This document shows positions 4,690-46,344 of a stretch of DNA of 64,000 nucleotides, in pieces. Location: NCBI GenBank assembly GCA_000146465.1, contig CP001945.1. The stretch is one strand, 5' to 3'. Under the pieces are notes generated by a model that searched no databases, was not told where the DNA came from, and saw only the letters and a list, made by a program, of their open reading frames with translations. The position numbers and the translations under genes are program-made. Numbering within the stretch: the stretch's first letter is position 1; every line of letters begins with the position of its first letter.

Positions 4690-5259
4690 ATGATGCATGG
4701 CTGGAAAGTGTTCAAGTATTCAAGAAGAGTGGAAGGAGAAGAAGGAGAGAAGTCGTTTTGTGGGATTGGGTTGGAGGAAATAAGCCGAGTGATACTTCAT
4801 TCAGAAGTTGGTCGGCAAGGGATTATAAAGGAGAGGTGGCTCCATGTGTTCACAGAGGGTAGCAAAACACTAGGGTTGGCTCTGTTGCCATCTATGCTAG
4901 AGGTTCGGGTCTACATCGTCTCTGCCATTAGACAAGAGCTGGTGATACTGGAGAGAATAAAGCTTGAGGAGAAATGGGATATTAGGGTTTGTGTAAGCAA
5001 GAGAGTGATTAGATGTAGATGTAAACAGAGGAAATTTCAAGTCATCTTCTTTAGTAAAGAAGATTCAGAAGACTTTGCAAGTAAGTTTGGGCACTTTTCC
5101 AAGCCCCCTCCTTCAATACCAAAATATTTCCCGTTGATTGGGACATTTGAAGGACTTGATGGAAACGAGAAAAAGGAGAAGAAGACTCCCAAATACAAAA
5201 AGAAGAAGAAAGTTATTGAGGAGTTTTTATCGTTGCTGTTTGAGGCCCTTGGGAACTAA
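4690..5259 (+). CDS. hypothetical lysine-rich ORF, 189 aa, in an otherwise empty 590-bp convergent spacer
   Basis: ATG at 4690 and a Lys-rich C-terminus (KKEKKTPKYKKKKK). It overlaps the 3' end of the PUS1 gene by 4 nt. No homology was recognised, so it may be spurious. Confidence 0.3.
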   Translation: MMHGWKVFKYSRRVEGEEGEKSFCGIGLEEISRVILHSEVGRQGIIKERWLHVFTEGSKTLGLALLPSMLEVRVYIVSAIRQELVILERIKLEEKWDIRVCVSKRVIRCRCKQRKFQVIFFSKEDSEDFASKFGHFSKPPPSIPKYFPLIGTFEGLDGNEKKEKKTPKYKKKKKVIEEFLSLLFEALGN

Positions 5260-10914: not shown

Positions 10915-10996
10915 ATGGGACCTGGGGGATTCGAACCCCCGAACGTTACCGTATTCGATCTTGAGTCGAACGCCTTAGACCACTCGGCCAAAGTCC
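10915..10996 (-). tRNA. tRNA-Leu (anticodon CAA), no intron
   Basis: The reverse complement reads GGGACTTTGGCCGAGTGGTCTAAGGCGTTCGACTCAAGATCGAATACGGTAACGTTCGGGGGTTCGAATCCCCCAGGTCCCA. It has a 7-bp acceptor stem, a GCCGAGTGGTCTAAGGC D-arm and an anticodon loop CTCAAGA. It also has a long variable arm, a GGGGG/TTCGAAT/CCCCC T-arm and discriminator A, followed on the minus strand by TTTT (plus-strand 10911-10914). Confidence 0.85.
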
Positions 10997-11089
10997 CTCA
11001 GGTCGGATTCAGGACATGCCGAAAGCACTCCGGAAGACAGTACACAGCCATCCAGGTTCTTTAAATAAGTCTTAATAAAGGCCCTTTGG

Positions 11090-15992: not shown

Positions 15993-16499
15993 TTACTTGG
16001 CAATCCCTAGCTTTCTCATCAATTCAAGCTCAAGCACCTCTTTTTTCTTTTGATGGAGACTGTTGCCGTCTCCAAGGCTTTTCCCCTTCTTCGCATTCAC
16101 TGTGCTGATCCGGGAAGCATCTTTAAAGATCTCCTCCCCATACCCGGGCTTGATGATGTTTGCCTCGGACTCAATACATATTCTCTCCACCTCACAATTC
16201 TTGCTCTCCTCGTTAACTCTTTCCCAATGCTCCTCACTTATCATCCTGTCCTCATACAACACTCCAAGAATCTCCATGTCCTTCTCTAACTTCATCACCC
16301 TTTCCTTGAAGCAGGCTGCTGCCTTGACAAGTTGTCTGAGAAGTACAGAAGAGGCTGCTCCCTCGGATTTTTGCAGAAAATACATCTCAAGCTCCATGTT
16401 TGGATTCTCTTCTGCCGGCATCTTCCTCTTGTTGATTCTTCTTACGAAGGAAAACGTCAGAATCATTGTCGACAGAATTATCCCAAGCAAGAGAATCAT
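15993..16499 (-). CDS. hypothetical signal-anchor membrane protein
   Basis: The ORF track extends to 16628 with a TTG start and overlaps the TAF13 3' end. An internal Met at 16499 begins MILLLGIILSTMILTFSFV (TM helix). The start is uncertain. Confidence 0.35.
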   Translation of the reverse strand: MILLLGIILSTMILTFSFVRRINKRKMPAEENPNMELEMYFLQKSEGAASSVLLRQLVKAAACFKERVMKLEKDMEILGVLYEDRMISEEHWERVNEESKNCEVERICIESEANIIKPGYGEEIFKDASRISTVNAKKGKSLGDGNSLHQKKKEVLELELMRKLGIAK

Positions 16500-23100: not shown

Positions 23101-25197
23101 ATGCTGAAGGAAAAGATCAAGGAGAAGGACCTTGATGGAGAGAAGAAGGCTGAGAAGATCAAAAGGCTTGAGTTGTCTGAAGAAGAAAGAAGGAGAGAGC
23201 TGAAGAAAAAGGAGCAGGAGATGAACGAGCTCCGAACTAATTGGTTGAGCATGAAGAAATGGAAGGAGGAGTGTGTAGAGCTAAGGGCAGACTATGAGGC
23301 GATGCAGAAGAAGTTAAAAGACGAAGCAGAAGATGCATTGCTTGAAAACGACCGCCTCCAGAACGAGATTCGAAAGATGAGGAAGGAGATGGAGGAGCAG
23401 GAACTTATGCGGAAGAAGCTTCTGGACGATCTGGAGTTTGAGAGGAGTAGGGGGCAGAAGCTTGAAGGAGCATTTCAAGAGCTCAGGAGAGAACACGAGA
23501 TTGTAGAGGAGCAGCTTCAGAAGGAAAAGCAGCTGAAGGATTCAACACAAGAGTCGTTAGTGGAGAGGATAAAGGGCCTTGAGAGGAAAACCAAGAGCCT
23601 TAGTGAGAAGTTGAAGAGTGAAGAGCTTGCAAACAAGCAGCTTATGAATGAGAAAGACGACATGCACAGAGAGATCCATGTTTTGCAGCAGTCGAAACTG
23701 GACGAGATTTTCGACAGGGAGGCAGCATTCAACAGTGCCAAAAAGAATCTTCAGATGGAGATCCAAAGGCTGGAAATGGAGAACCAAAAGCTGAATACGG
23801 AGATTATGGAATCGAAGTGTATGGGGGAGGCTAGTGAGGAGAGTGTTTCGGCAATGGAAAAGTTTTATGTGATTCTTGAGGAGGAGAGGAAGAAGAGAAA
23901 AGAGATTGAGCACCAGGTATCTGAGCAGGAAAACAAGAACGTCATATTGAGCAGCGAAGTGGAAATGCTAAAGGAGATGGTTGAGATAGAAAGAAGAAGC
24001 AAAGAAGAAATGATGAGGGGGCAAGAGAAAGAGACAGGACTGCGAAGGGCGATTTCTGGGGTGCGGAAAGAGATTGAGGATGTTGAAAATGAAATGAACA
24101 TGATTGTCAGTGGGTTCAATGAGCTGTATTTCTCTGTTCTTAACAAATACAAAGGGGATCTTAAGGAATGTAAAGAGAGTTTGGAATTGAAGAATCATAC
24201 TATTGAGGAGCTGAATGATAGGATTTTGGATCTGAGCTCGCTTGCCGAAGGAAGGAGAGCGGTGGAAGAAGAAACGAGTGGAAGGATGGAAGAAATGAGC
24301 AAGCAGTACAGCAAGATGGCCAATGACTTCTCATCGCTGAGTGCCAAATGTAATTCTCTTGAGATATCTCTATCTGAGAAGGAGGAGGAGATCAAGAGAT
24401 ATGAAGAGAAGTGCAGTGAATATGACAATCTGGTCAGAGATTTGGGATGCCGAATTGACGAGGAGATTAAGAATCTCCACAGGAGTGATGAGGAGAGAAG
24501 AGGATATATTAGAAAGCTCGAAGATGATTTGAACGGAAGTATGGCAGGAATAAGGAAGCTGGAGGAGAAGTATAGGGCACGAATGGAGGAAAGTGTACAG
24601 TATGTCCTTGATGGGGAGAAGAGGAAGCTTAAGGCTCTAGAGGAGTTACACGGGCAGCTAGCAAAGAGATTTGATGATCTACAAGGGGAACATCGGATTC
24701 TTTTGGACGAAAAGATGAAGGACTCGTTGAGGATTGAGCAGCTTGAGGGAGAGCTCTGTGCTCTCCGGAAGGCGGAGACACAAAGGCAAGACATGATTTT
24801 GATGTATGAATCCGAGATTTCTGGATTGAAGCGGTGTGCAAGGTTCCAAGACGAGATCCAAACATCGTTTGGGGGAGAAAGAAGCCCTGCAGTTGTGCAT
24901 GTCTGTGATAAAGAGAAGTATCAAGCGCTGGATCGTAAGAGGGCAGTTATTGAGAATGAGTTGTTAAGGGCAAACAACGATAAGGAGTCCCAGATTGCAG
25001 CCAATAAGAAGCTTCGGGAGGAGGTAGAAAGACTCCGAGGAGAGATTGAGGGGAGCAGGAGCAAGGCATTGGAAATGAAGAAGAAGTTGGGGCATCAGAT
25101 GCTAACGGCGAACCGTCTCAGCAGGGAACTTGAAGAAGAGAAGGAGATGGTAAGGTTTCTGAGGACTCTTGGAGGAGGGAGGAAGAAGAAAGCCTGA
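20164..25197 (+). CDS. myosin II heavy chain (motor domain plus long coiled-coil tail)
   Basis: GESGAGKTENTKRVVEF P-loop, NDNSSRFGKFIKI switch I, LDIAGFEIF switch II, and an SH3-like N-terminus. IQ region (IRRRLAFRKYN) followed by about 870 aa of E/K/R/L heptad coiled coil. The ORF track begins at 19930 and would overlap the upstream minus gene, so the ATG at 20164 (MEETTNKH) is preferred. Confidence 0.85.
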   Translation: MEETTNKHTSGLRLGEKASLKDEIQRRFMEKKWVWVPSNKEAYRSGFVVKEEGDNLEVDCEGVVIKCKSCEIFRMNPPKFDMIDDLAELSYLNEPGVLHNLKRRYQNGRIYTYSGLFLLAINPYKNLRIYGEKDARKYTLSKKYELEPHIFAVANEAYKSMVSSRENQSILITGESGAGKTENTKRVVEFLAMVGGSKDAEVSIDRKIIDANPILEAFGNAQTVKNDNSSRFGKFIKIKFNGGNICGAHIEKYLLEKSRVTNQNRNERNYHIFYQLLGSEDQGLKKQLFLSGEPKDYRFLRGSKFRIPGVDDAEEFKRLRESMDILGISRGEQNGYFGIVSAVLHLGNIEFREKDGAAEIANLDVAEKVCKLLNIPLTEFIKGLIHPMIRAGNEYVAQSRSKEQALKIVEGLARILYDKMFDSVIGRINMSLSSPHKGNFIGVLDIAGFEIFEKNSFEQLCINYTNEKLQQFFNHHMFILEQEVYRKENIDWDFIDFGLDLQPTIDLIEKNNPIGILSYLDEECVMPMATEKTFLGKLMKNIRDEKFEVDRIRDVFILNHYAGDVEYTVEDWLSKNKDSHSEALTSLIRMSSDETVSKLSLEEEMIKKGFFRTVSQKHKEQLASLMSELRGTNPHFVRCIIPNLEKSGESLDNGVVLGQLKCNGVLEGIRISRQGFPSRMGYLEFVRRYKIMVKEEVLDGELWGDGVCMELCKEGTGKILSEIGIGGSQYRMGRTKVFFRQGVLADIEDMRDGKISEIVKEVQALIRRRLAFRKYNLTQRRMQGILVIQRNGRICNELQRWNWWRLYQKIKPLLDVRKKDNEMREKDAMIQEYIRMLDAEKSRREESEEMMKMISLKKDLLEKTVEDEKRFSMEKDELLMALRYKVDSMGQELEKARKEADEAHEEKKVCSERLAEMGKTLEGREAEICDLRKEMEEQKNTLLLQERDICTLREEIVSKLSEKDAMVEKMLRERDKEVMMLKEKIKEKDLDGEKKAEKIKRLELSEEERRRELKKKEQEMNELRTNWLSMKKWKEECVELRADYEAMQKKLKDEAEDALLENDRLQNEIRKMRKEMEEQELMRKKLLDDLEFERSRGQKLEGAFQELRREHEIVEEQLQKEKQLKDSTQESLVERIKGLERKTKSLSEKLKSEELANKQLMNEKDDMHREIHVLQQSKLDEIFDREAAFNSAKKNLQMEIQRLEMENQKLNTEIMESKCMGEASEESVSAMEKFYVILEEERKKRKEIEHQVSEQENKNVILSSEVEMLKEMVEIERRSKEEMMRGQEKETGLRRAISGVRKEIEDVENEMNMIVSGFNELYFSVLNKYKGDLKECKESLELKNHTIEELNDRILDLSSLAEGRRAVEEETSGRMEEMSKQYSKMANDFSSLSAKCNSLEISLSEKEEEIKRYEEKCSEYDNLVRDLGCRIDEEIKNLHRSDEERRGYIRKLEDDLNGSMAGIRKLEEKYRARMEESVQYVLDGEKRKLKALEELHGQLAKRFDDLQGEHRILLDEKMKDSLRIEQLEGELCALRKAETQRQDMILMYESEISGLKRCARFQDEIQTSFGGERSPAVVHVCDKEKYQALDRKRAVIENELLRANNDKESQIAANKKLREEVERLRGEIEGSRSKALEMKKKLGHQMLTANRLSRELEEEKEMVRFLRTLGGGRKKKA

Positions 25198-29550: not shown

Positions 29551-29723
29551 CCTTGAACTTAGAAGACTTAAGATCTGGAGCCAGACACAATATAGGAAAT
29601 GTTCGGGGCTCTACTATTCAGAGGCATACCGTTGATCACGTGTCCCCGTGCATTCAAGGGCTGAATTTGGTGGGGATATGGTTAATCATTAAAAGCCATA
29701 TCTAAACGTTCTGTAGATATTAA

Positions 29724-29732
29724 TTTTTTTTT
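29724..29732 (+). other. T9 homopolymer tract inside a 470-bp non-coding gap
   Basis: taaTTTTTTTTTgtc. The gap has no ORF of 60 aa or more on either strand. This is a possible Pol III terminator or a poly(dA:dT) promoter element. Confidence 0.3.
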
Positions 29733-30020
29733 GTCACTTTCTGATGAAATAGAGCTTGCTAGGGAGATAATGAAGGCTTTGGTGAAGTGAAGCATTTACA
29801 TTTTCCAGTTACCTTATCTATCTCTTATCTCGGATTCTTTGTTTATACTTGTGGAATCTGTTTACTTAAAATCCTAATCCATTTCCCGATGAGCATGGTC
29901 TATTAAGTGATTTGGTACTGTATCGAGACCTCCAGGCACGGAAGATCGGGAATCTTTGCAGGATCCCGAGCTAACTTCATGGAATGGGCTGAAATGTCGC
30001 GTGATCCATATCCCTAAGGA

Positions 30021-31350: not shown

Positions 31351-33522
31351 ATGAGGATATTGAATGTTGCCGAGAAACCTTCTGTTGCAAGATCGATATC
31401 CTCGGTCTTATCGAAGGATCTAAGTGTCAGGAGAGGGCTTCATCAGTACTGTCCAAACATCCAGTTTGACCATGGCAATCAGATGGTCTTCACAAGTGTT
31501 CTGGGACATGTGCTCTCGAGCGACTTTGAGAACAAGAGCCGGTGGGATGAAGTAGATCCAGAGACACTGTTTACAGAAAGGATTGTCAAGTATGTACAGC
31601 CGGAGTTTATAAAGGTTAAGGAAAATATAGAAAGAGAGGCGTTGAAATGCGACATGGTTGTGATTTGGACTGACTGTGATAGAGAAGGGGAAAACATTGG
31701 AAGGCAGATAAGAGACATTGTCCTTGGGGTGAAGAAGGTTGAAGTGAAGCGGGCAAGATTTTCTGGGATCACTCTCCGGGACATAGAGGGAGCATTGGGA
31801 AACCTAGGGGAAATAAACGAAGCAGAGGCAGAGGCGGTCGAAGTACGCATGGAATTGGATCTTAGAATAGGATCGGCGTTTACTAGGCTGCAGACCTTGT
31901 CACTGGGCAGGACGATACAGGAGAAAAGGGTACTAAGCTTTGGGCCGTGCCAGGTACCTACATTGGGATTTGTGGTTGAGAGGGCAAGGGAAAGGGAGAG
32001 CTTTGTCCCTGAGATGTTCTGGACTCTAATGTTTAAGACTAAAAGTAAGAAACTTGGAGATGAATTTACGTGGAGAAGAGGATCTGTCTTTGATAAGAAC
32101 TGTGTTATATGTTTCCATAGAAGCTTGTCTGGAGAAAGTGCTAGGATAGTGTTAAAAGAAGTGAGAGAAAGAACCAAATACAAGCCGCTTCCTCTTAGAA
32201 CTGTTGAGCTTCAGAAGAAATGTTCATCGTACTTCAAGCTAAGTGGACACAAGGTGATGGAGATTGCAGAGGGGCTGTACAACAAAGGATATATAAGCTA
32301 TCCCAGGACAGAGACAGATGCATTCGATAGGAAGTTTGACTTCAAGTACATATTGGGTAAGTTATGTAAGGATTCGAAGGTAGGTGAGCATGCTGAGAAG
32401 TTGATTGGGGGGTTTGATTATCCGCGGAATGGAAGAAACAATGACATGGCACATTCTCCAATATATCCACTAAAAGAAGGGACAGGACTTTCAGGAAAGG
32501 ATAGAGATATCTATGACTTTATTTGTAGAAGGTTTCTTGGATGTATATCAAAGGATGCCAAGGGCCTTGAGACACGGTATGAACTGAAGATTGGATCTGA
32601 GATGTTTGATCTGAAGGGGATAAGGGTGGTCGAAAAGAACTATCTGGAGGTGTATTACTATGATAAGTGGGATGATAAAGAAGTCAGTGACTTTCAGATG
32701 GGAGAGATGGTTTCGGGGGATCTTTGTATCTCGGAGGGCAAGACAACACCTCCAAACTATCTTACCGAGGCCGAACTGATAAGCCTGATGGATAAGAATG
32801 GAATAGGAACAGATGCAACGATACATGAGCATATTCAAAAGATTCAAGAGAGAGGATATGCAATCAAGGTTGGAGAAGAAATAAGGCCTCTGGAGCTTGG
32901 GGCAGCTCTTATTGGAGGATATGAAAGGTTTGGATTGAATGTTGGCAAGCCTGAGCTTCGGAAGAGCCTAGAAGGTAATCTCAAGAAGATATCGGAGGGC
33001 CGGATGAGTGGAAGAGAAGTAGTGAAGGAGGGAATTATAGCCTATAGAGACATATATGCCCTCCTTAAAAGAAATATCGAGGAATTTGTCTGTATTCTTA
33101 GACAGGGTATTGAAAATGATACAAAGCGGCTGGGAGTGGAGAAGAGAAAAAAGGCGGAAAGGGCAGAACAAGGAAAGACAAAAGCAGAGGGTTTCAAGGG
33201 TCTCAACCCAAAGAAAGCTCTGAACAAAGAAGGAGAAAAGAAAAGAGTGGAATGTGATTGTAAAGACGAAGCCAAGGTGCTGAAGGTAAAGAAGGGAGAC
33301 AATACTGGAAAGGAGTTCTATTGTTGTGGAAAGACAGCAAAAAGATGTTATTTTTTCCAGTGGTGTGACAAGGAGGAAACCAAGAGAGACGAGGAGCTGA
33401 AATGCTTCTGCGGGTTTGAGCCCCAATTGCTTGTAGCAAACACAGAAAACAATAAAGGAAGGAAGTTCTTCAAGTGCAAGAAAGCATACAAGCCATGTAA
33501 GTTCTTCCAATGGGAGGAATGA
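31351..33522 (+). CDS. TOP3: DNA topoisomerase III (type IA) with C-terminal GRF-type zinc fingers
   Basis: Toprim MRILNVAEKPSVARSIS...VFTSVLGHVL. Active-site GYISYPRTETD. C-terminal C4 repeats CCGKTAKRCYFFQW and FFKCKKAYKPCKFFQWEE. Confidence 0.9.
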   Translation: MRILNVAEKPSVARSISSVLSKDLSVRRGLHQYCPNIQFDHGNQMVFTSVLGHVLSSDFENKSRWDEVDPETLFTERIVKYVQPEFIKVKENIEREALKCDMVVIWTDCDREGENIGRQIRDIVLGVKKVEVKRARFSGITLRDIEGALGNLGEINEAEAEAVEVRMELDLRIGSAFTRLQTLSLGRTIQEKRVLSFGPCQVPTLGFVVERARERESFVPEMFWTLMFKTKSKKLGDEFTWRRGSVFDKNCVICFHRSLSGESARIVLKEVRERTKYKPLPLRTVELQKKCSSYFKLSGHKVMEIAEGLYNKGYISYPRTETDAFDRKFDFKYILGKLCKDSKVGEHAEKLIGGFDYPRNGRNNDMAHSPIYPLKEGTGLSGKDRDIYDFICRRFLGCISKDAKGLETRYELKIGSEMFDLKGIRVVEKNYLEVYYYDKWDDKEVSDFQMGEMVSGDLCISEGKTTPPNYLTEAELISLMDKNGIGTDATIHEHIQKIQERGYAIKVGEEIRPLELGAALIGGYERFGLNVGKPELRKSLEGNLKKISEGRMSGREVVKEGIIAYRDIYALLKRNIEEFVCILRQGIENDTKRLGVEKRKKAERAEQGKTKAEGFKGLNPKKALNKEGEKKRVECDCKDEAKVLKVKKGDNTGKEFYCCGKTAKRCYFFQWCDKEETKRDEELKCFCGFEPQLLVANTENNKGRKFFKCKKAYKPCKFFQWEE

Positions 33523-38254: not shown

Positions 38255-39223
38255 ATGCTTCTACTTCTTACAATTGTTGGAATAGTGGTCTGCAGGGAAA
38301 ATGCAGTGATTCTGATTCTCTGTAGGAACAGCGACAAGAATGGCATAACAGAAACGATAAAGAATTTCGAAGAGGTGTTCAATAGAAACTTCGGATATCC
38401 TTATGTATTTCTGAACGATGAGGAGTTTACCGAGGACTTCAAGAAAGCTATAAAGGATGTTACATCTAATAGTGTTGAGTTTGGAAGACTCGAGCCCGAG
38501 GAGTGGGAGATTCCAAAGTGGATAGATATGGAGAAGGCAAAGGAGGAAATGAAGAAAATGGAAGACAGGAAAATCATCTATGGAGGGTCTCTATCATACA
38601 GGAAGATGTGCAGGTTCTTTTCTGGATTCTTCTACAGGAACAAGCTTGTCCAGAAGTATGACTATTATTGGAGGATAGAGCCAGATGTAAAGTTCCTGTG
38701 CCAGATAGAGTATGATCCGTTCACATATCTTCGGGAGAACAACAAACAGTATGGGTTTGTGATATCCTTGGTTGAGTTTATGGAGACGATTCCCAGTCTG
38801 TTTGGAGAGGTGATAAAGTTTGCAACACATAACCTGAACTTGATCAAAAAGGCCAATGGAAATAGATTCATACTAAACAAGGACGGGTCATACAACGGAT
38901 GTCATTTTTGGTCCAACTTTGAAATAGCAAACTTTGGATTCTTTAGAAATGAAACATACCAGAAGTACTTTGATTGGTTAGACAAGGCTGGGGGGTTTTT
39001 CTACGAAAGATGGGGTGATGCGCCTGTGCACAGTATTGCAGCATCTCTCTTCCTGGATAAGGATCAGATCCACTTCTTCAGCGACATTGGGTATGAGCAT
39101 CCTCCATTCCAGCATTGTCCAAGAGAGGCGTCCATGAGATCGAAATGCAAGTGCAGTATTTCGAACTCGTTAGACTTTTCTCCAAATTCGTGTCTGGGCT
39201 TGTACATAAAGTCTCTTTTGTGA
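38255..39223 (+). CDS. alpha-1,2-mannosyltransferase, KTR/KRE2 family (GT15), type II membrane protein
   Basis: N-terminal signal anchor [92 protein letters not shown] and [17 protein letters not shown] are all hallmark GT15 blocks. Confidence 0.9.
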
Positions 39224-39303
39224 ATGAAGAATGCCTGGAAGTATATTCGATAATAATAAATTGGTACGACGGATATTTTGGTTTATTTTTGACCCGATAC
39301 GAG

Positions 39304-42078
39304 ATGGATTCTGAAAAGGAAGCTTTGAAGGAAAGGAAGAAAATGGAGAAGGAAGAGAAGAAGAGGCAGAAGCTGGAGAAATTCCTGGCAAAGAAAACAC
39401 AAGAAATGAATGTTTCCAAGCCAAGGAAGGAGTACAAGGGAGATGGCTATGACCCGCTAGGGATTGAAGGGAAGTGGTACGAGTTCTGGGAGAACAACGA
39501 GCTTTTCAAGCCTATAGAGGGAAAAGAGAAATATGTAATTCCGATTCCTCCGCCAAATGTCACAGGAAACCTTCATATAGGACATGCAATGATGGTTTCA
39601 ATTCAGGATACTTTGTGTAGATACAAGAGGATGTGCGGGTATGAGGTTTTGTATATTCCTGGGACAGACCATGCAGGAATAGCCACACAGAATGTTGTAT
39701 TGAAGCAATTGGAAAGAGAAGGAGTTGTCTCTGACAGAGAAGGGTTTCTTAAGAAGGCCTGGGAGTGGAAGGATAAGCATGGATCAAGAATATATGAGCA
39801 ATTTAAGAGATTAGGGACGAGTGTAGACTTCAGCAGGGAAAGATTTACCCTAGATCCAGGGATGAACGAAGCTGTTGTTGATGCGTTTGTAAAGCTCTAT
39901 GAAAGAGGCCTTATATATCGAGAGCTGAAAATTGTGAACTGGTGTGCCAAGCTGTCGACAACCATAAGTGACTTGGAGGTTAATCACGAAGAGGTGATGG
40001 CCAGCACAGATCTACAAGTAGATGGAGGAAAGTATGAGTTTGGGGTAATTTATCATTTTAAGTATCCCATGACAATAGATAAGGAATTTTCAGGAGATTA
40101 TCTTTCGCTACCGGCAATTGAAGTGGCAACAACAAGACCGGAAACGATTCTTGGAGACACGGCGATATGTGTGAATGGAAAGGACGAAAGATTTGGAGCC
40201 AGAGGAATAAAGGAGACTTTTGGGGATGTTCCTGAAGGAAGCAAGCTCTATTGTGTAAATCCGTTGACCAGTGAGGTGATTCCTGTTGTCTTTGACGACT
40301 ATGCAGATATGAGCTTTGGAACTGGAGTGGTGAAAATAACACCTGCACATGATGCAAATGACTTCGATGTATCGAGGAGACATGGACTTCCTTGCAAGAT
40401 TGTGTTTGATGAAGAAAACAGGGTAATCATTGAGGGAGAGTTCAAGGGGCTAAAGAGATTTGAGGCAAGAAAAGCTGTTATTTCAAAGCTTACAGACATT
40501 GGCTTGTTTGTTGGAAAGAAGGAGTATCCTCAGGTGATTCCAAGATGTTCCCGATCTAATGACATTATAGAGCCTATTGTCAAGAGTCAATGGTGGATGG
40601 ACTGTAAGGAAATGGCAAATAAGGCTATTGAGGCAGTTAAAGAAGGAAGAATAAGAATACTACCTGAAGGGGCAGAAAGGCGATGGTATAAATGGCTTGA
40701 GAATATCAGGGACTGGTGTCTATCGAGGCAACTGTGGTGGGGGCATCGAATACCTGCATACAGAATGCCTTCTGGAAAATGGTATGTTGGAAGAAGCAAG
40801 GAAGAAGCATTTTTGAAGATGAAGAATGAGTGTCCTGAGGATGGATGTAGTATTGATGAGTTTGAGCAGGACGAGGATGTTCTAGACACATGGTTTTCTT
40901 CGGGCCTATGGCCGTTTGCCATTCTAGGATGGCCCAAAGAGACAGAAGACCTTCAAAAGTACTATCCTAGCACCTTGCTTGAAACAGGCAGCGACATTCT
41001 CTTCTTCTGGGTGGCGAGAATGGTGATGCTTGGAATTGAACTGACCGGAAAAGAGCCTTTCAGCCAAGTGTTTCTCCATGGGATAGTAAGAGATGCACAT
41101 GGAAGGAAGATGAGCAAAAGCCTTGGGAATGTCATTGACCCGATTTTTGTGATTGATGGATGTCCTCTTTCAAAGCTGATTTCGACAATGAGAAGCGGGA
41201 ATCTCGATGAGAGGGAGATGAAGAGGGCAGAAGAAGTCCTACGAAAGGATTTCCCAAACGGAATACCAAGGTGCGGGGCAGATGCTCTTAGATTTACTTT
41301 ACTTTCCTACACCTCTGGAATGAAGGATATCAACCTTGATGTACTGAGGGTGGAAGGATATCGAAGGTTTTGCAACAAAATATGGAATGCTCATAGATTT
41401 GTGAAGGCAGCAGTAGATGAGGCCATTGAAGAAAGCCTTAGAGGGTCCACTTGTAAGAAGAAATACGAGAAGTATATTCTTCCGGCTGATAAGCTACAGA
41501 TTCGTTCTGGAGAAGGACCCGTTGAATGGATTCTTAAAAAAAGGAACGAGTTAATAGAAATAAGCCAGAGAATGATTGATTCATTCAACTTCATGGGAGC
41601 CACACAAGCAATCCATCAGTTTTTTATTTACGATCTGTGTGATGTCTTCATAGAGGTTGTTAAGAAAAACAAGAGCGAAAGATACATAGGGGTACTATTA
41701 AGCGTGTTTATCGATTCGATGAAGATACTCCATCCATTTATGCCATTTATCACAGAAGAGGTGTTTTCTGATTATTTCGATAGTTCTATTTCCACTTCAC
41801 CATATCCTAGGACAGATGGGTCTAACCATGAAAACAAGTTTTCTGGGACACTTCAAATTATAAGGCATGTAAGGGCAAAGGCAGAGTCAAAGGGATGGCC
41901 TAGGGTTGCAGTAGGGATTGCCCCAGGAGAAGATGTTGACCTTGCAGACCTGGAGTTTGTCCGTCTGCTTTGCAAAAAAATTATCGAATTTAAGGTAGTA
42001 GAACATTCAGAAAGCTCAGAAAGCCATCTGTATGAGAAGGTAGGGGATTCTGGAGTATTTGTGAGCCAAGCAGATTGA
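39304..42078 (+). CDS. VAS1: valyl-tRNA synthetase with lysine-rich N-terminal appendage
   Basis: [14 protein letters not shown] (HIGH). KMSKSLGN (KMSKS). Editing and anticodon-binding regions are conserved. The ORF track starts at a TTG at 39115 inside the KTR gene. The ATG at 39304 ([13 protein letters not shown]) is preceded by CCC. Confidence 0.9.
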
Positions 42079-42103
42079 CAAGAACATAACTGATTAAAGT
42101 CTT

Positions 42104-42754
42104 TTAATTTAGCTTTTTGGCAGAGTGAGTGGAAACCAAAAAGTCTCTTCCCCTTCGGTAATATTCCTGTACATCACGTGGGCAGCTGAGAACCCACTTG
42201 TCCAGAGACACACGTATTTCCCCAAAGACACTTCGCATTGATGGATTATTGAAGTATTGCTGCCTCACCATGGCAATGAAAGTTGTAAAGGTCACGAGGC
42301 TCGACTTTCTGAGGAATATCATTAGGAAGGAGAGAGGAACAGCAAGAACCTCTGTAAACAATGCTAGTCTCCCCAGGGTGACATGGTATGCCGACAAGGA
42401 GACACAGATGGGATATATAGATGTTCTTTCGAAAGTCTTCTTGTTGGACAGAACAAATGAGCTGAGATGATATATCGACAGAAGGTAAAACGGGAGAAGA
42501 AGAGCCTCATGGGGAAACGTGAAGAACACTGTGATGCAGTAAATGTTTGGCTGTGACAGGATTTCCTTCATGGATGAGAGATGTGGAAGTAAGGAAATTG
42601 AGTATGACGATATCAAGCACAGAATGTTTACGAAGTTTGGCAGTGGATATATAGGAATTCTGATCAGATGAAGCACAATGTATAGTGTGTAGTTTACCGC
42701 AAACAAAGTATTCAGTAACATCCATGTCTTCTTAGTAGAATTTATCTCTAGCAT
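42104..42754 (-). CDS. hypothetical polytopic membrane protein, 216 aa, about 5-6 TM segments
   Basis: Multiple hydrophobic helices (LLNTLFAVNYTLYIVLHLI, ILCLISSYSISLL, ITVFFTF, LLLPFYLLSIYHLSSFVL, LAVPLSFLMIFL). No family recognised. Confidence 0.4.
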   Translation of the reverse strand: MLEINSTKKTWMLLNTLFAVNYTLYIVLHLIRIPIYPLPNFVNILCLISSYSISLLPHLSSMKEILSQPNIYCITVFFTFPHEALLLPFYLLSIYHLSSFVLSNKKTFERTSIYPICVSLSAYHVTLGRLALFTEVLAVPLSFLMIFLRKSSLVTFTTFIAMVRQQYFNNPSMRSVFGEIRVSLDKWVLSCPRDVQEYYRRGRDFLVSTHSAKKLN

Positions 42755-42902
42755 TTTTCTTAGAAGGGCTAAGGGATCAAGTGGTATTTAGAGAACGAAG
42801 TTTGGGGTGTTTCATGTAGTGTGCCAAATAACAAAATGCTGAATAGTGATATTTGAAACGTCCATAAAGACATAAAGGCAGGCGAGAAAGAAAATCTCGG
42901 GA

Positions 42903-43900
42903 ATGATAACTATCAAAGAGGCCTTGAACCAAGCTATAGATGAAGAGATGGAAATGGATAAGAGAGTGTTTGTTCTTGGGGAGGAGGTGGGCATATCTGG
43001 AGGAAACAAAGGAGTCACTAGAGGTCTATACGAGAAGTATGGAAAGTGGAGAGTTCTTGATACACCCATCAGTGAAATGGGATTCACAGGCCTGGGTGTG
43101 GGGCATCCTATCTAGGCCTAAGGCCGATAATTGAGTTTATGACATGGAACTTTGCATTGCAGTCTATTGACCATATAATCAACTCGTGTGCCAAGACACT
43201 GTACATGTCTGGGGGGAAAGTTAGTTGCCCTATTGTATTTAGAGGGCCTAATGGATTCAATCCTGGATATGCAGCTCAACACACACAAGACTTCTGCAGC
43301 TACTATGGTGCAGTCCCCGGTCTTAAGGTTGTCGCTCCCTTCACAGCAAAGGATCATAAAGGATTACTGAAATCGGCGATCCGAGATAACAATCCAGTGG
43401 TATTTTTGGAAAATGAGACGCTTTACGATGATACATATAAGGACATAGAACAGGGATACATGCAATCACTAGATAAAGCTGTGATCGAAGTAGAAGGGTG
43501 CGACGTCACTCTTGTAGGAATTTCACTTTCAGTAAAGACATGTCTGGAGGCTGCTAAGGCACTGAAAGATCTAGGGATTTCTTGTGAAGTTATCAACCTC
43601 GTGTCGATCAAGCCCATAGATAAACAAACATTATTGACCTCTGCCAAGAAGACAAAGCATGTGTTTGTAATTGATTTTGCATGGCCATCGTTCAGTGTTG
43701 CTTCCGAGATTTCTGCAATAATACACGAGAACTGCTTTAAAGATTTGATGGCTTCTGTTCAAAGAATAAACGCAAAAGACATTCCTACTCCCTACTCAGA
43801 GAAAATAGAAGCAATGGCGTTTCCAACATGTACAGATGTCATTGATTCGGTGGTTGAAGTCTATAAAAGCACCTCCAAAGATAATAAATTAGGTCTTTAA
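42903..43900 (+). pseudogene. PDB1: pyruvate dehydrogenase E1 component beta subunit, reading frame broken by a 1-nt loss in the G4 run at 43100-43103 (genuine frameshift or homopolymer sequencing error)
   Basis: Frame 0 (42903-43115) gives [67 protein letters not shown], then HPI and a stop. Frame -1 continues without a break: [51 protein letters not shown]...NPVVFLENE..., through the stop at 43900. Together the two frames reproduce the canonical E1-beta block [25 protein letters not shown] exactly if the run reads GGGGG. There is no N-terminal targeting presequence. Confidence 0.8.
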
Positions 43901-43908
43901 TTTCTACT

Positions 43909-44268
43909 CTAAAGAAGTTCTTCAAACTCAACTAATCCACTGTTTTTATCGTTAACAGCAAATGTGTCGTCATTTATTTCTCCATCCTCCTTCAATATCT
44001 TAATTTCTTTTGGCATATACTTCCTGTCAATATCTGCCCTCTTCTCATCCCCGTCTCTAACACGTAGTAAAACTATGTCGCCTGGAATCATTCGAACACG
44101 TCTGTAGTCTCTTCCACGAACCTTTGCAGTCCTGTAAACTCCGTCAGAACAACTTACCTTAAACTGTCCTTGGCCAAGGGGACATATTATTTGCCCATAC
44201 ACAGTCCCCTCTTCTTCTGCAAATACCAAAGCTCTGTCGTTCGTAAATCTTCCTTTCCTTCCTTTCAT
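43909..44268 (-). CDS. TIF11: translation initiation factor eIF-1A
   Basis: GRKGRFTNDRALVFAEEEGTVYGQIICPLGQGQFKVSCSDGVYRTAKVRGRDYRRVRMIPGDIVLL matches the eIF1A OB-fold (GKNKRRG...[52 protein letters not shown]). Confidence 0.8.
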   Translation of the reverse strand: MKGRKGRFTNDRALVFAEEEGTVYGQIICPLGQGQFKVSCSDGVYRTAKVRGRDYRRVRMIPGDIVLLRVRDGDEKRADIDRKYMPKEIKILKEDGEINDDTFAVNDKNSGLVEFEELL

Positions 44269-44332
44269 CCACCCCTAGATCTCCGCCAATTTTATCACAA
44301 CCAATCTTGTAAAGAAAATTCAAAAGTCAACA

Positions 44333-44917
44333 TTAGGGGCCATGAGTTTTAATTATCCCTTTTGAAGCCATGTATGCAGCTAGGCTCCTACTCGCAATTC
44401 CCCTATGGCTTATCCTGTTTTTCTCGTCAGTTGGCATATTTTTTAGGACACCATTAAATCCATCGGGAATGAAAATATACCCAAATTCTGTTTTGCAATC
44501 TTTCTCTGGCTCTGTGATAGAGCCCTTCAGTTTCCCTGAAAACACCTTCTTGACTATTTCTCCATTTTCATAATGGGCAATTCCCAAGCTACAGACTGCT
44601 GTGGCGCTTTTATTCCCTATCTTCTCTACAATCTCCCAAATCTTCCGGGTGCCTATTTCGAGAAAATCCTTCACATAGACACCGGGAAATCCTCCTAAGG
44701 CTTCAAGAGAAAACGAAGTGTCGTCAACTATCACTGCATCCTTTGGGTTTATAAAGGGCGCCGCTTGATCCAGTTTGTGTTCTACAATCTTTTCTGAAGG
44801 CCCTTGGATTTCGGTCATTGAAATTCTCATGTGATCTATGTCTGTCTTGAGGAACTCTTTAACCTCATTTAGTTTTTTCAAATTGGTTGTTGCAAAATAA
44901 ATTTTCCCCGTGGTCAT
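44333..44917 (-). CDS. HAM1: inosine triphosphate pyrophosphatase (ITPase/HAM1 family)
   Basis: IYFATTNLKKLNEV. VIVDDTSFSLEALGGFPGVYVKDF. FGYIFIP. DEKNRISHRGIA. Confidence 0.85.
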   Translation of the reverse strand: MTTGKIYFATTNLKKLNEVKEFLKTDIDHMRISMTEIQGPSEKIVEHKLDQAAPFINPKDAVIVDDTSFSLEALGGFPGVYVKDFLEIGTRKIWEIVEKIGNKSATAVCSLGIAHYENGEIVKKVFSGKLKGSITEPEKDCKTEFGYIFIPDGFNGVLKNMPTDEKNRISHRGIASRSLAAYMASKGIIKTHGP

Positions 44918-45132
44918 TCCTAAGGGTATCAGTTCGTTAATAATTCACTCCTTCCTGTATTTTTCGATCCCTCATGCCGTTCTTTCAAAAGACAGGTGAA
45001 TGTGAATATGAATTAGCACGGAGTAATTTCACAAGGAGCTATCCGGATAAGCCTAAGTCTATTAAAACAATTGGTAATAATCTATTTATGGAAACAAACT
45101 AATTTTTTAAATCGTAAAATAGTTTGCCCTAA

Positions 45133-46344
45133 ATGAAAGGAGGCTTGAGTGTTACATCGGCAATAGTAACAATGGTAACATCGATGATGGGTACTGGAAT
45201 CAACTACATGCCATATGCATTTAAAAGTGTTGGATACATCAGGGGGATTCTTCTGATAAATGGAGTGGGAATTCTAACGTTTTTCTCTCTATATGCGATC
45301 TCAATTGCAGCAAATAGATCCAAGGAGCAAAACCCAACCTATTCCTCATTATCAACACACATCTCGAAGGCACTTAAGATCTTAGTGGATATGTCTATTT
45401 TCAGTTCGTGTTTTGGAGTGAATATTGTGTTCTACAGATATCTTGCGGAGCTCATCACGATCATGGTTCCAATAGGCAAGTATGTGGATCCAGAAATAGG
45501 GAGAAAGATAGTTATTGGAGCTCTTTCAATTCCATTTCTGCTTCTATCATTACAAAAGAATCTTTCGAACCTCAAAGTGACATCCTATATTACGGTGGCT
45601 TCTGTAAGCTATCTTGCAGTACTGATGGGGATTTACTGTCTTTTTATTGGAGGAAAAAGTGCTGAAGAGCCAATGCAGAGGTTTGGAAGCAACTTTTCAG
45701 GTGGGATTTCCTGCTTTATGTTTGCATTGTCCTGCCAAGCAAATATGGTCAAGACATACACCGAGATGGAGCATAAGTCTCCAAGCAACATAATCAAAGT
45801 CGCAATGGGAGCTTCGTTGATAGGAACTCTTATTTATGGAAGTGTTGGGCTTTGTGGATATGCTGTGTTTGGGGACACCATCAAAGGTTCGATAATTGAT
45901 ATACTGATAAGCCCAGAAAGCAGTATCAACTTATATCTCATGAGAAACACCATCGACAAGTACGCACTATCTTCAAAGATGGCTTGCATCGGGGCGATGC
46001 TGGTTCTGTTTGGGGCATTCCCGGTTCAGATGAACCCGTTGGTTGGAATACCCCTTAGCTACTTCGCTCGGGAAGGGAGCAACGAAGATGCAGTAAGGAG
46101 AAAGGTAGTCTCCGTGCTTATGATTTTATTCTTATCGTTGTCTCTTCTGGAAGATCTTAACATTGACACTATTCTTCAGATGGTAGGCGCCACAGCAGTT
46201 AACCTGGTGTCTTTTACCTATCCCTTCATCTATTACCTATATTTCAGAAGCAAAGTGGACTTCATGTCTGGCTTGGCTTTGTTTGGAATAATTGGTAGTA
46301 TAGCATCTATGATCTACATGTCATACAACATAATGTTATCATAA
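45133..46344 (+). CDS. amino acid transporter (AAAP/SLC38-like, about 10-11 TM)
   Basis: VTMVTSMMGTGINYMPYAFKSVGYIRGILL N-terminal Aa_trans signature. Polytopic throughout. The ATG at 45133 is preceded by GCCC. Confidence 0.65.
   Translation: MKGGLSVTSAIVTMVTSMMGTGINYMPYAFKSVGYIRGILLINGVGILTFFSLYAISIAANRSKEQNPTYSSLSTHISKALKILVDMSIFSSCFGVNIVFYRYLAELITIMVPIGKYVDPEIGRKIVIGALSIPFLLLSLQKNLSNLKVTSYITVASVSYLAVLMGIYCLFIGGKSAEEPMQRFGSNFSGGISCFMFALSCQANMVKTYTEMEHKSPSNIIKVAMGASLIGTLIYGSVGLCGYAVFGDTIKGSIIDILISPESSINLYLMRNTIDKYALSSKMACIGAMLVLFGAFPVQMNPLVGIPLSYFAREGSNEDAVRRKVVSVLMILFLSLSLLEDLNIDTILQMVGATAVNLVSFTYPFIYYLYFRSKVDFMSGLALFGIIGSIASMIYMSYNIMLS

Follow-up and report, generated by a model that had tools for sequence, protein, structure and literature searches.

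Nearly all microsporidia keep both the alpha and the beta subunit of pyruvate dehydrogenase (PDH) E1 without the remaining PDH complex. Both subunits were retained in all microsporidian genomes then sequenced except that of Enterocytozoon bieneusi (PMC2942035), and the two subunits are also missing from Amphiamblys (PMC5381614). Microsporidia keep mitosomes (PMC2742732), and their description as organelle-less in a first-pass annotation of the DNA analyzed here was wrong. For Encephalitozoon intestinalis, MicroAnnot (PMC10815200), which reused the manual re-annotation of Peyretaillade et al. (2012), catalogued 11 (+1) loci as 'frameshift, sequence error or pseudogene' among 1,940 genes. One of these, listed in Table S2 as NC_014418:138903-139900, has coordinates identical to those of the interval of the PDH E1-beta gene (PDHB). 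The catalogue neither names the gene nor picks one of the three categories, whereas the cross-assembly and evolutionary evidence presented here points to a real lesion. Literature text searches retrieved nothing on PDHB being broken in E. intestinalis, and PDHB is not mentioned in the text of the scRNA-seq paper. The locus was thus already known as a catalogue entry; new are only its resolution as a real lesion and the dating of that lesion.

Structure of the locus and identity of its product

The window, i.e., the whole stretch of 64,000 nt that was analyzed, corresponds to NC_014418:96001-160000 of the 2010 assembly (E. intestinalis chromosome IV), and window positions equal NC_014418 coordinates minus 96,000. 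This offset was exact for four other genes of MicroAnnot Table S2: 127351-129522 (window 31351-33522), 100690-101259 (4690-5259), 116164-121197 (ending at 25197), and 111993-112499 (starting at 15993). All positions below are those of the window. The whole PDHB locus lies on the plus strand at 42903-43900, and its length of 998 nt equals 3 × 333 minus 1. No single uninterrupted frame spans the entire subunit. ORF A (42903-43115, plus strand; 70 codons and a stop) encodes PDHB residues 1-67 followed by an out-of-frame His-Pro-Ile and, according to the translation of the window, a premature TAG at 43113-43115. It has been annotated separately as a 70-aa protein (UTX45094.1 / KAL7347901.1). ORF B (43139-43900, plus strand, frame -1; 253 codons and a stop at 43898-43900) encodes residues 80-332 and is 100% identical to ADM11403.1, the gene model in GenBank, which is titled 'pyruvate dehydrogenase subunit beta [Encephalitozoon intestinalis ATCC 50506]'. 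The twelve conserved codons for residues 68-79 (43103-43138, plus strand) belong to neither ORF, being open in the -1 frame only, 5' of its first ATG.

Codon alignment with five relatives placed the missing base at T GGGG (43099-43103, plus strand), with the GGGG at 43100-43103. Insertion of a single base anywhere in 43099-43103 restored Val66-Gly67-Ala68, and every such repair gave the same protein of 332 aa. The first-pass annotation, which had put the break at this GGGG, the stop at 43115 and the continuation in the -1 frame, was exact to the base. Its seamless repair by one added base was likewise reproduced, yielding the 332-aa product with both E1-beta domains, and so was its reading of a single -1-type lesion: beyond the missing base, no second stop or indel was seen in PDHB.

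The repaired translation matched the Pfam domains Transket_pyr (PF02779, residues 2-175, E = 5.9e-37) and Transketolase_C (PF02780, residues 192-313, E = 1.2e-34), of which ORF B carries the remainder of the former and the whole of the latter. Its best homologues were microsporidian PDH E1-beta proteins (E. hellem, E. romaleae, Ordospora, and E. cuniculi), with an E-value of 1e-181 that places the match far beyond chance, and human E1-beta (3exe_B) aligned with E = 1.5e-98. Of its orthologues, those of E. hellem and the E. romaleae-like genome were approximately 81% identical and that of E. cuniculi 79%, and the nearest full-length proteins reached 81-82% at most. Glu58 of the DTPISEMGF motif, which is encoded in ORF A, was invariant in 86 homologues and aligned to residue 59 of 3exe_B. 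The Glu of the DTPISE motif is the cofactor-activating residue in ThDP enzymes. In the alignment with the mature human chain (3exe_B), residue 2 of PDHB fell on residue 3, so the protein has no presequence. Domains, orthology, synteny, and conserved residues all bore out the original call of the gene as PDH E1-beta, as did this alignment the claim that an N-terminal presequence is absent.

The break was mapped onto an AF2 model (pLDDT 94.3) of PDHB from E. hellem, an intact protein that aligns without gaps to the repaired one. In this model, it falls inside helix 58-70, which begins at the invariant Glu58. The residues found in neither ORF (68-79) comprise the end of this helix and the whole of core beta-strand 74-78, and they include the invariant Pro75 and the near-invariant Gly72, Leu73, and Phe79. 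Although Glu58 is encoded in ORF A, this ORF covers only two of the core strands. From ORF B, Glu58 and three core strands are missing, and its start ATG is the ancestral, family-invariant Met80 rather than a new start. Neither fragment is a plausible enzyme.

Orthologues in related genomes and the base that was lost

An uninterrupted syntenic PDHB was found in all five relatives compared, namely E. cuniculi EcunIII-L, E. hellem, an E. romaleae-like genome, another Encephalitozoon-like genome, and Ordospora colligata. The gene order ValRS, TMEM33/Pom33, PDHB, eIF1A, Ham1, and amino-acid transporter was shared by the six loci. Comparison with orthologues in sister genomes had been proposed in the first-pass annotation. 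The accompanying expectation, that close relatives of a true pseudogene would show the same interrupted frame together with other decay, was half right: the relatives are all intact, with no break in common, and the gene itself is without other decay.

The E. romaleae-like genome (Logan SRR23946965) falls in the same 90% cluster as E. romaleae SJ-2008. The other Encephalitozoon-like genome (Logan SRR21633403, 21-kb contig) has the same gene order and a PDHB 78-81% identical to that of every named Encephalitozoon species. In every Encephalitozoon locus, Ham1/ITPase has eIF1A on one side and the amino-acid transporter on the other; in O. colligata it is uncalled at the syntenic spot between these two genes, where a gap of approximately 400 nt occurs (L008:4359-4762, L009).

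Some database entries for relatives are as short as the E. intestinalis model. A 254-aa entry of E. cuniculi EcunIII-L (KMV66319.1, L002:2764-3765) was considered as a shared frameshift and rejected, the start being mis-called and the DNA open in one frame. The first model of E. hellem ATCC 50504 (XP_003887140.1, 247 aa) was also short, and the later XP_003887140.2 is full length. The short models of both species start at an internal MTWNF methionine. Truncated models of the same shape thus exist for species with intact DNA, and homology-based annotation seems to have carried the broken E. intestinalis model over to relatives.

At the site of the break, the five relatives read GTC GGC GCC, GTC GGA GCC, GTC GGG GCC, GTC GGG GCA, and ATA GGT GCT, and E. 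intestinalis reads GT(.)GGGGCA. The Val66 codon is GTC in four of the five, two of which have GTC-GGG-GCx across the site. Removal of the C from GTC GGG GCA yields exactly the observed GTGGGGCA in one event, whereas contraction of G5 to G4 requires an earlier change of GTC to GTG. By this codon comparison, loss of the C from an ancestral GTC would be the more parsimonious route, the contraction being possible as well. A G5-to-G4 contraction as the sole reading was therefore withdrawn. Of the homopolymer frameshift proposed earlier, the one-base break at the G run stands and the origin in the G homopolymer is not required, because the loss of C is more parsimonious.

Selective constraint and age of the lesion

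The dN/dS of PDHB against E. hellem, the E. romaleae-like genome, and E. cuniculi was 0.04-0.05, values that are rough because dS was saturated (>2). By part, omega was 0.06-0.08 for the N part and approximately 0.04 for the C part, indicating constraint on both, and the surplus of unique changes in the N part was not significant (Fisher p = 0.44). The dN of the E. intestinalis branch was 0.066 vs. 0.051 for E. hellem, a ratio of 1.30; in five intact neighbour genes, the same ratio spanned 0.85-1.28 when E. hellem served as sister, and it reached up to 1.65 when the E. romaleae-like genome took that place. The Tajima relative-rate test gave 26 vs. 19 unique replacements (p = 0.30). All 38 residues invariant in the 86-sequence alignment were retained, as were nearly all near-invariant positions. 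Departures from the ≥85% consensus were confined to F147, I257, and I302 (three of 98 positions), all of them conservative; the family median is four. Omega, relative rate, and conserved-site departures thus gave no positive sign of relaxed selection in E. intestinalis PDHB.

With such an absence of relaxed selection, the only kind of pseudogene that PDHB could be is a very young one. If the gene has been drifting neutrally, the lack of a second stop or indel limits the drift after the break to approximately 0.017-0.10 substitutions per site (95% bound, depending on the assumed transition bias and indel rate), no more than a few percent of the history of the lineage. Because the gene otherwise looks fully constrained, the break is presumably recent or, less likely, tolerated. 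One point weighs against a young pseudogene: a gene as constrained as its intact neighbours is also what would be expected of a still-functional, somehow rescued gene.

Taken together, these comparisons of sequence make it probable that PDHB of E. intestinalis is a very young (nascent) unitary pseudogene which arose from a genuine one-base deletion. This deletion would truncate PDH E1-beta after residue 67; translation from the normal ATG would stop at the TAG at 43113-43115 and give a 70-residue stub, and the downstream ORF B would have no evident means of expression. PDHB function would then likely be lost, and the break may mark the visible beginning of the loss of the relic PDH E1 enzyme. 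Among the three explanations offered by the first-pass annotation, i.e., sequencing or assembly error, recent inactivating mutation, and programmed frameshift, the second is the best supported, given a reproducible lesion, intact relatives, and no further decay.

Distribution of the lesion among isolates

The one-base lesion is genuine and present in every available assembly of E. intestinalis. In DNA it was seen in three data sets. The 2010 genome was sequenced with Illumina GAIIx at 40x and finished by PCR and Sanger sequencing (PMC4355639). The 2023 telomere-to-telomere (T2T) genome was sequenced with Nanopore and iteratively corrected with Illumina reads by Pilon (PMC10158259); its chromosome CP075161.1 was identical to the window over 40403-45615, with the same 70 + 253 split. 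The third is a Logan contig of 3,292 bp (run ERR13302946), which had zero mismatches to the window across the break. In three further isolates, the break was seen through gene models only: the exact 253-aa model recurred as KAL7345961, KAL7347902, and KAL7349869, and the 70-aa model as KAL7347901. The spacing of these accessions (approximately 1,950) fits three separate genomes. Isolates ATCC 50507, 50603, and 50651, from New York, Georgia, and California, were sequenced with Illumina at 303-361x and assembled de novo with SPAdes (PMC12697097), and the three recurring models are consistent with an origin from them. The disabling lesion was therefore reproducible over independent data (three DNA sequences and three further gene models), and it appears to be fixed in all sequenced isolates. 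Because all of these are ATCC cultures from US patients of 1993-94, species-wide fixation is a matter of inference.

The lesion could also be real without being species-wide, having arisen in the ATCC laboratory lineage(s) or in long-term culture, or being heterozygous with an intact allele collapsed by the assemblers, while natural populations keep PDHB. The lack of decay beyond one base is what an event of extremely recent date would leave, the genomes all derive from ATCC isolates that were collected in 1993-94 and kept in culture, and cultures of T. hominis were reported to gather frameshift variants (PMC4654818). However, four isolates, deposited separately and originating from different US states, carry this same lesion, as does an ENA run unrelated to them, and the broken allele was chosen by every assembler in every data set. 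An intact version is not on record, the intact 332-aa E. intestinalis protein being absent from a collection of approximately 15 billion proteins. We therefore consider this explanation unlikely, although it fares better than those that follow.

Possible expression by recoding

PDHB could also be functional through recoding, either by a -1 ribosomal slip on G_GGG or by RNA polymerase adding a G, both of which would lead to the GVGASYLG protein. G_GGG offers perfect P-site re-pairing: a -1 slip of the P-site tRNA-Gly from GGG at 43101-43103 to 43100-43102 would be followed by GCA (Ala68) and give the exact canonical GVGAS. Positions 43099-43103 are the only place where such a slip yields the canonical protein. 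The product would have the conserved sequence, and the purifying selection apparent in both halves of the gene fits a gene in use.

Against this, the site resembles canonical programmed -1 frameshift sites, which comprise an X_XXY_YYZ heptamer, a spacer, and a pseudoknot or hairpin, in that a -1 shift is needed and a re-pairable G_GGG exists, and it differs from them in three respects. A slippery heptamer X_XXY_YYZ is not present at the break (GTG GGG CAT), because an A-site CAU would shift to GCA without pairing. A downstream stimulatory RNA structure was not found in four windows of sequence, whose z-scores of -0.01 to +1.09 against 200 shuffles were no better than those of two intact orthologues. 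A frameshift is not conserved among relatives, the five genomes all being in frame at the site. The programmed frameshift considered in the first-pass annotation is therefore unsupported. Four consecutive G are far too few for transcriptional slippage to be efficient, and spontaneous P-site slippage usually occurs at around 1% or less. Function through recoding is, on this evidence, quite improbable.

A narrower form of the same idea is that E. intestinalis may keep a working PDH E1 because tRNA-Gly slips by -1 on G_GGG at a low level and without programming, or because an equivalent correction takes place in the mRNA. Nothing indicates that residual spontaneous slippage is selected, and we regard this as about as improbable as recoding in general, or slightly more so. 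If it were true, a newly broken gene under purifying selection, in what is to our knowledge the smallest known eukaryotic genome, would be translated mostly into a 70-residue stub and would let the beginnings of an evolved recoding site be observed.

Sequencing error and a two-piece enzyme

In principle, the short homopolymer could have been misread or misassembled, the gene being intact in the real genome. The break does lie at a G run, and the published table groups the locus under 'frameshift, sequence error or pseudogene' without dividing the three. However, the same sequence was obtained with Illumina GAIIx plus Sanger, with Nanopore plus Pilon/Illumina, and in Logan, and the same gene models were obtained from three SPAdes assemblies. 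Illumina is accurate at runs of 4-5 bases, and the platform used in 2010 is not homopolymer-prone. A G6 run at 43211-43216, 110 nt downstream inside PDHB, stays in frame, and the 44 other G/C runs of five or more in the window are without a visible gene split; the window holds 34 such runs of five, 9 of six, and 1 of seven. In a coarse scan, PDHB was the sole visibly split gene among approximately 50 ORFs of at least 90 aa tiled over the window, the other apparent gaps between ORFs belonging to a 322-aa ORF, a small zinc-ribbon ORF, and an MCM gene leaving the window edge. The small zinc-ribbon ORF presumably resembles ribosomal protein S27. With the break reproduced across independent assemblies and platforms, sequencing error is effectively excluded, and this option of the first-pass annotation was in effect refuted; we consider it very improbable.

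Least credible of all is a functional two-piece enzyme, in which the 70-aa and 253-aa products would assemble non-covalently into E1-beta: both ORFs are open and conserved and ORF B begins at the family-invariant Met80, but this ATG is ancestral, reaching it would need reinitiation after a 70-codon ORF and past at least one other ATG (42940), and the arrangement is unlikely because 12 conserved residues (68-79, with Gly72, Leu73, Pro75, Phe79, and core beta-strand 74-78) are in neither ORF.

Other features in and near the window

The longest ValRS ORF (ATG at 39145, 977 aa) overlapped the 3' end of the upstream 322-aa ORF at 38255-39223 (window 39115-39304). Public ValRS models have 924 aa, which implies a later start near 39304, and the long extension is probably untranslated. 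A stretch of 470 nt between neighbouring ORFs of at least 90 aa (29551-30020) stood out in this tightly packed genome; it contained open frames of 47-68 aa only, gave no tRNA or Rfam match, and could hold a small, intron-containing or decayed gene. MicroAnnot Table S2 lists a further 'frameshift, sequence error or pseudogene' locus of 698 nt on chromosome IX, outside the window (NC_014423:101943-102640). The sole tRNA in the 64-kb window was a tRNA-Leu (CAA) at 10916-10997 on the minus strand (Rfam, 60.7 bits), and Rfam and tRNA scans of the window returned nothing besides it. We take the E. cuniculi E1-alpha gene ECU09_1040 to lie on chromosome IX as well, the same chromosome as the catalogued locus NC_014423:101943-102640.

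Significance and comparison with known systems

If PDHB is a true null, E. intestinalis, a cultivable human pathogen, would be a natural E1-beta knockout. Mammalian cell culture and the human infections sampled would then be settings, at a minimum, in which the parasite can do without the enzyme, and a ready comparison with E. cuniculi and E. hellem would be at hand. GenBank and UniProt label the 253-aa fragment 'pyruvate dehydrogenase subunit beta', and because databases present this fragment as PDHB, metabolic reconstructions may err where they credit E. intestinalis with this gene.

Events of this kind are ordinary. The E. intestinalis gene shares its syntenic position, the two Pfam domains, the conserved residues, and the lack of a presequence with the intact orthologues of E. 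cuniculi (ECU04_1160 / CAD25304, 333 aa), E. hellem (AFM98159.2, 326 aa), E. romaleae (AFN82881, 327 aa), and Ordospora colligata (325 aa). Identity to intact microsporidian orthologues was 76-81%, with all invariant residues in common. Unlike all of these, E. intestinalis alone lacks one base after codon 66/67 and has its frame split. As in Enterocytozoon bieneusi (PMC2942035) and Amphiamblys sp. (PMC5381614), the relic E1 would be lost in a microsporidian lineage; its loss from those two shows that some parasites can dispense with it. In those two, however, the genes have disappeared along with a large part of carbon metabolism, whereas in E. intestinalis the gene is present and carries a single lesion.
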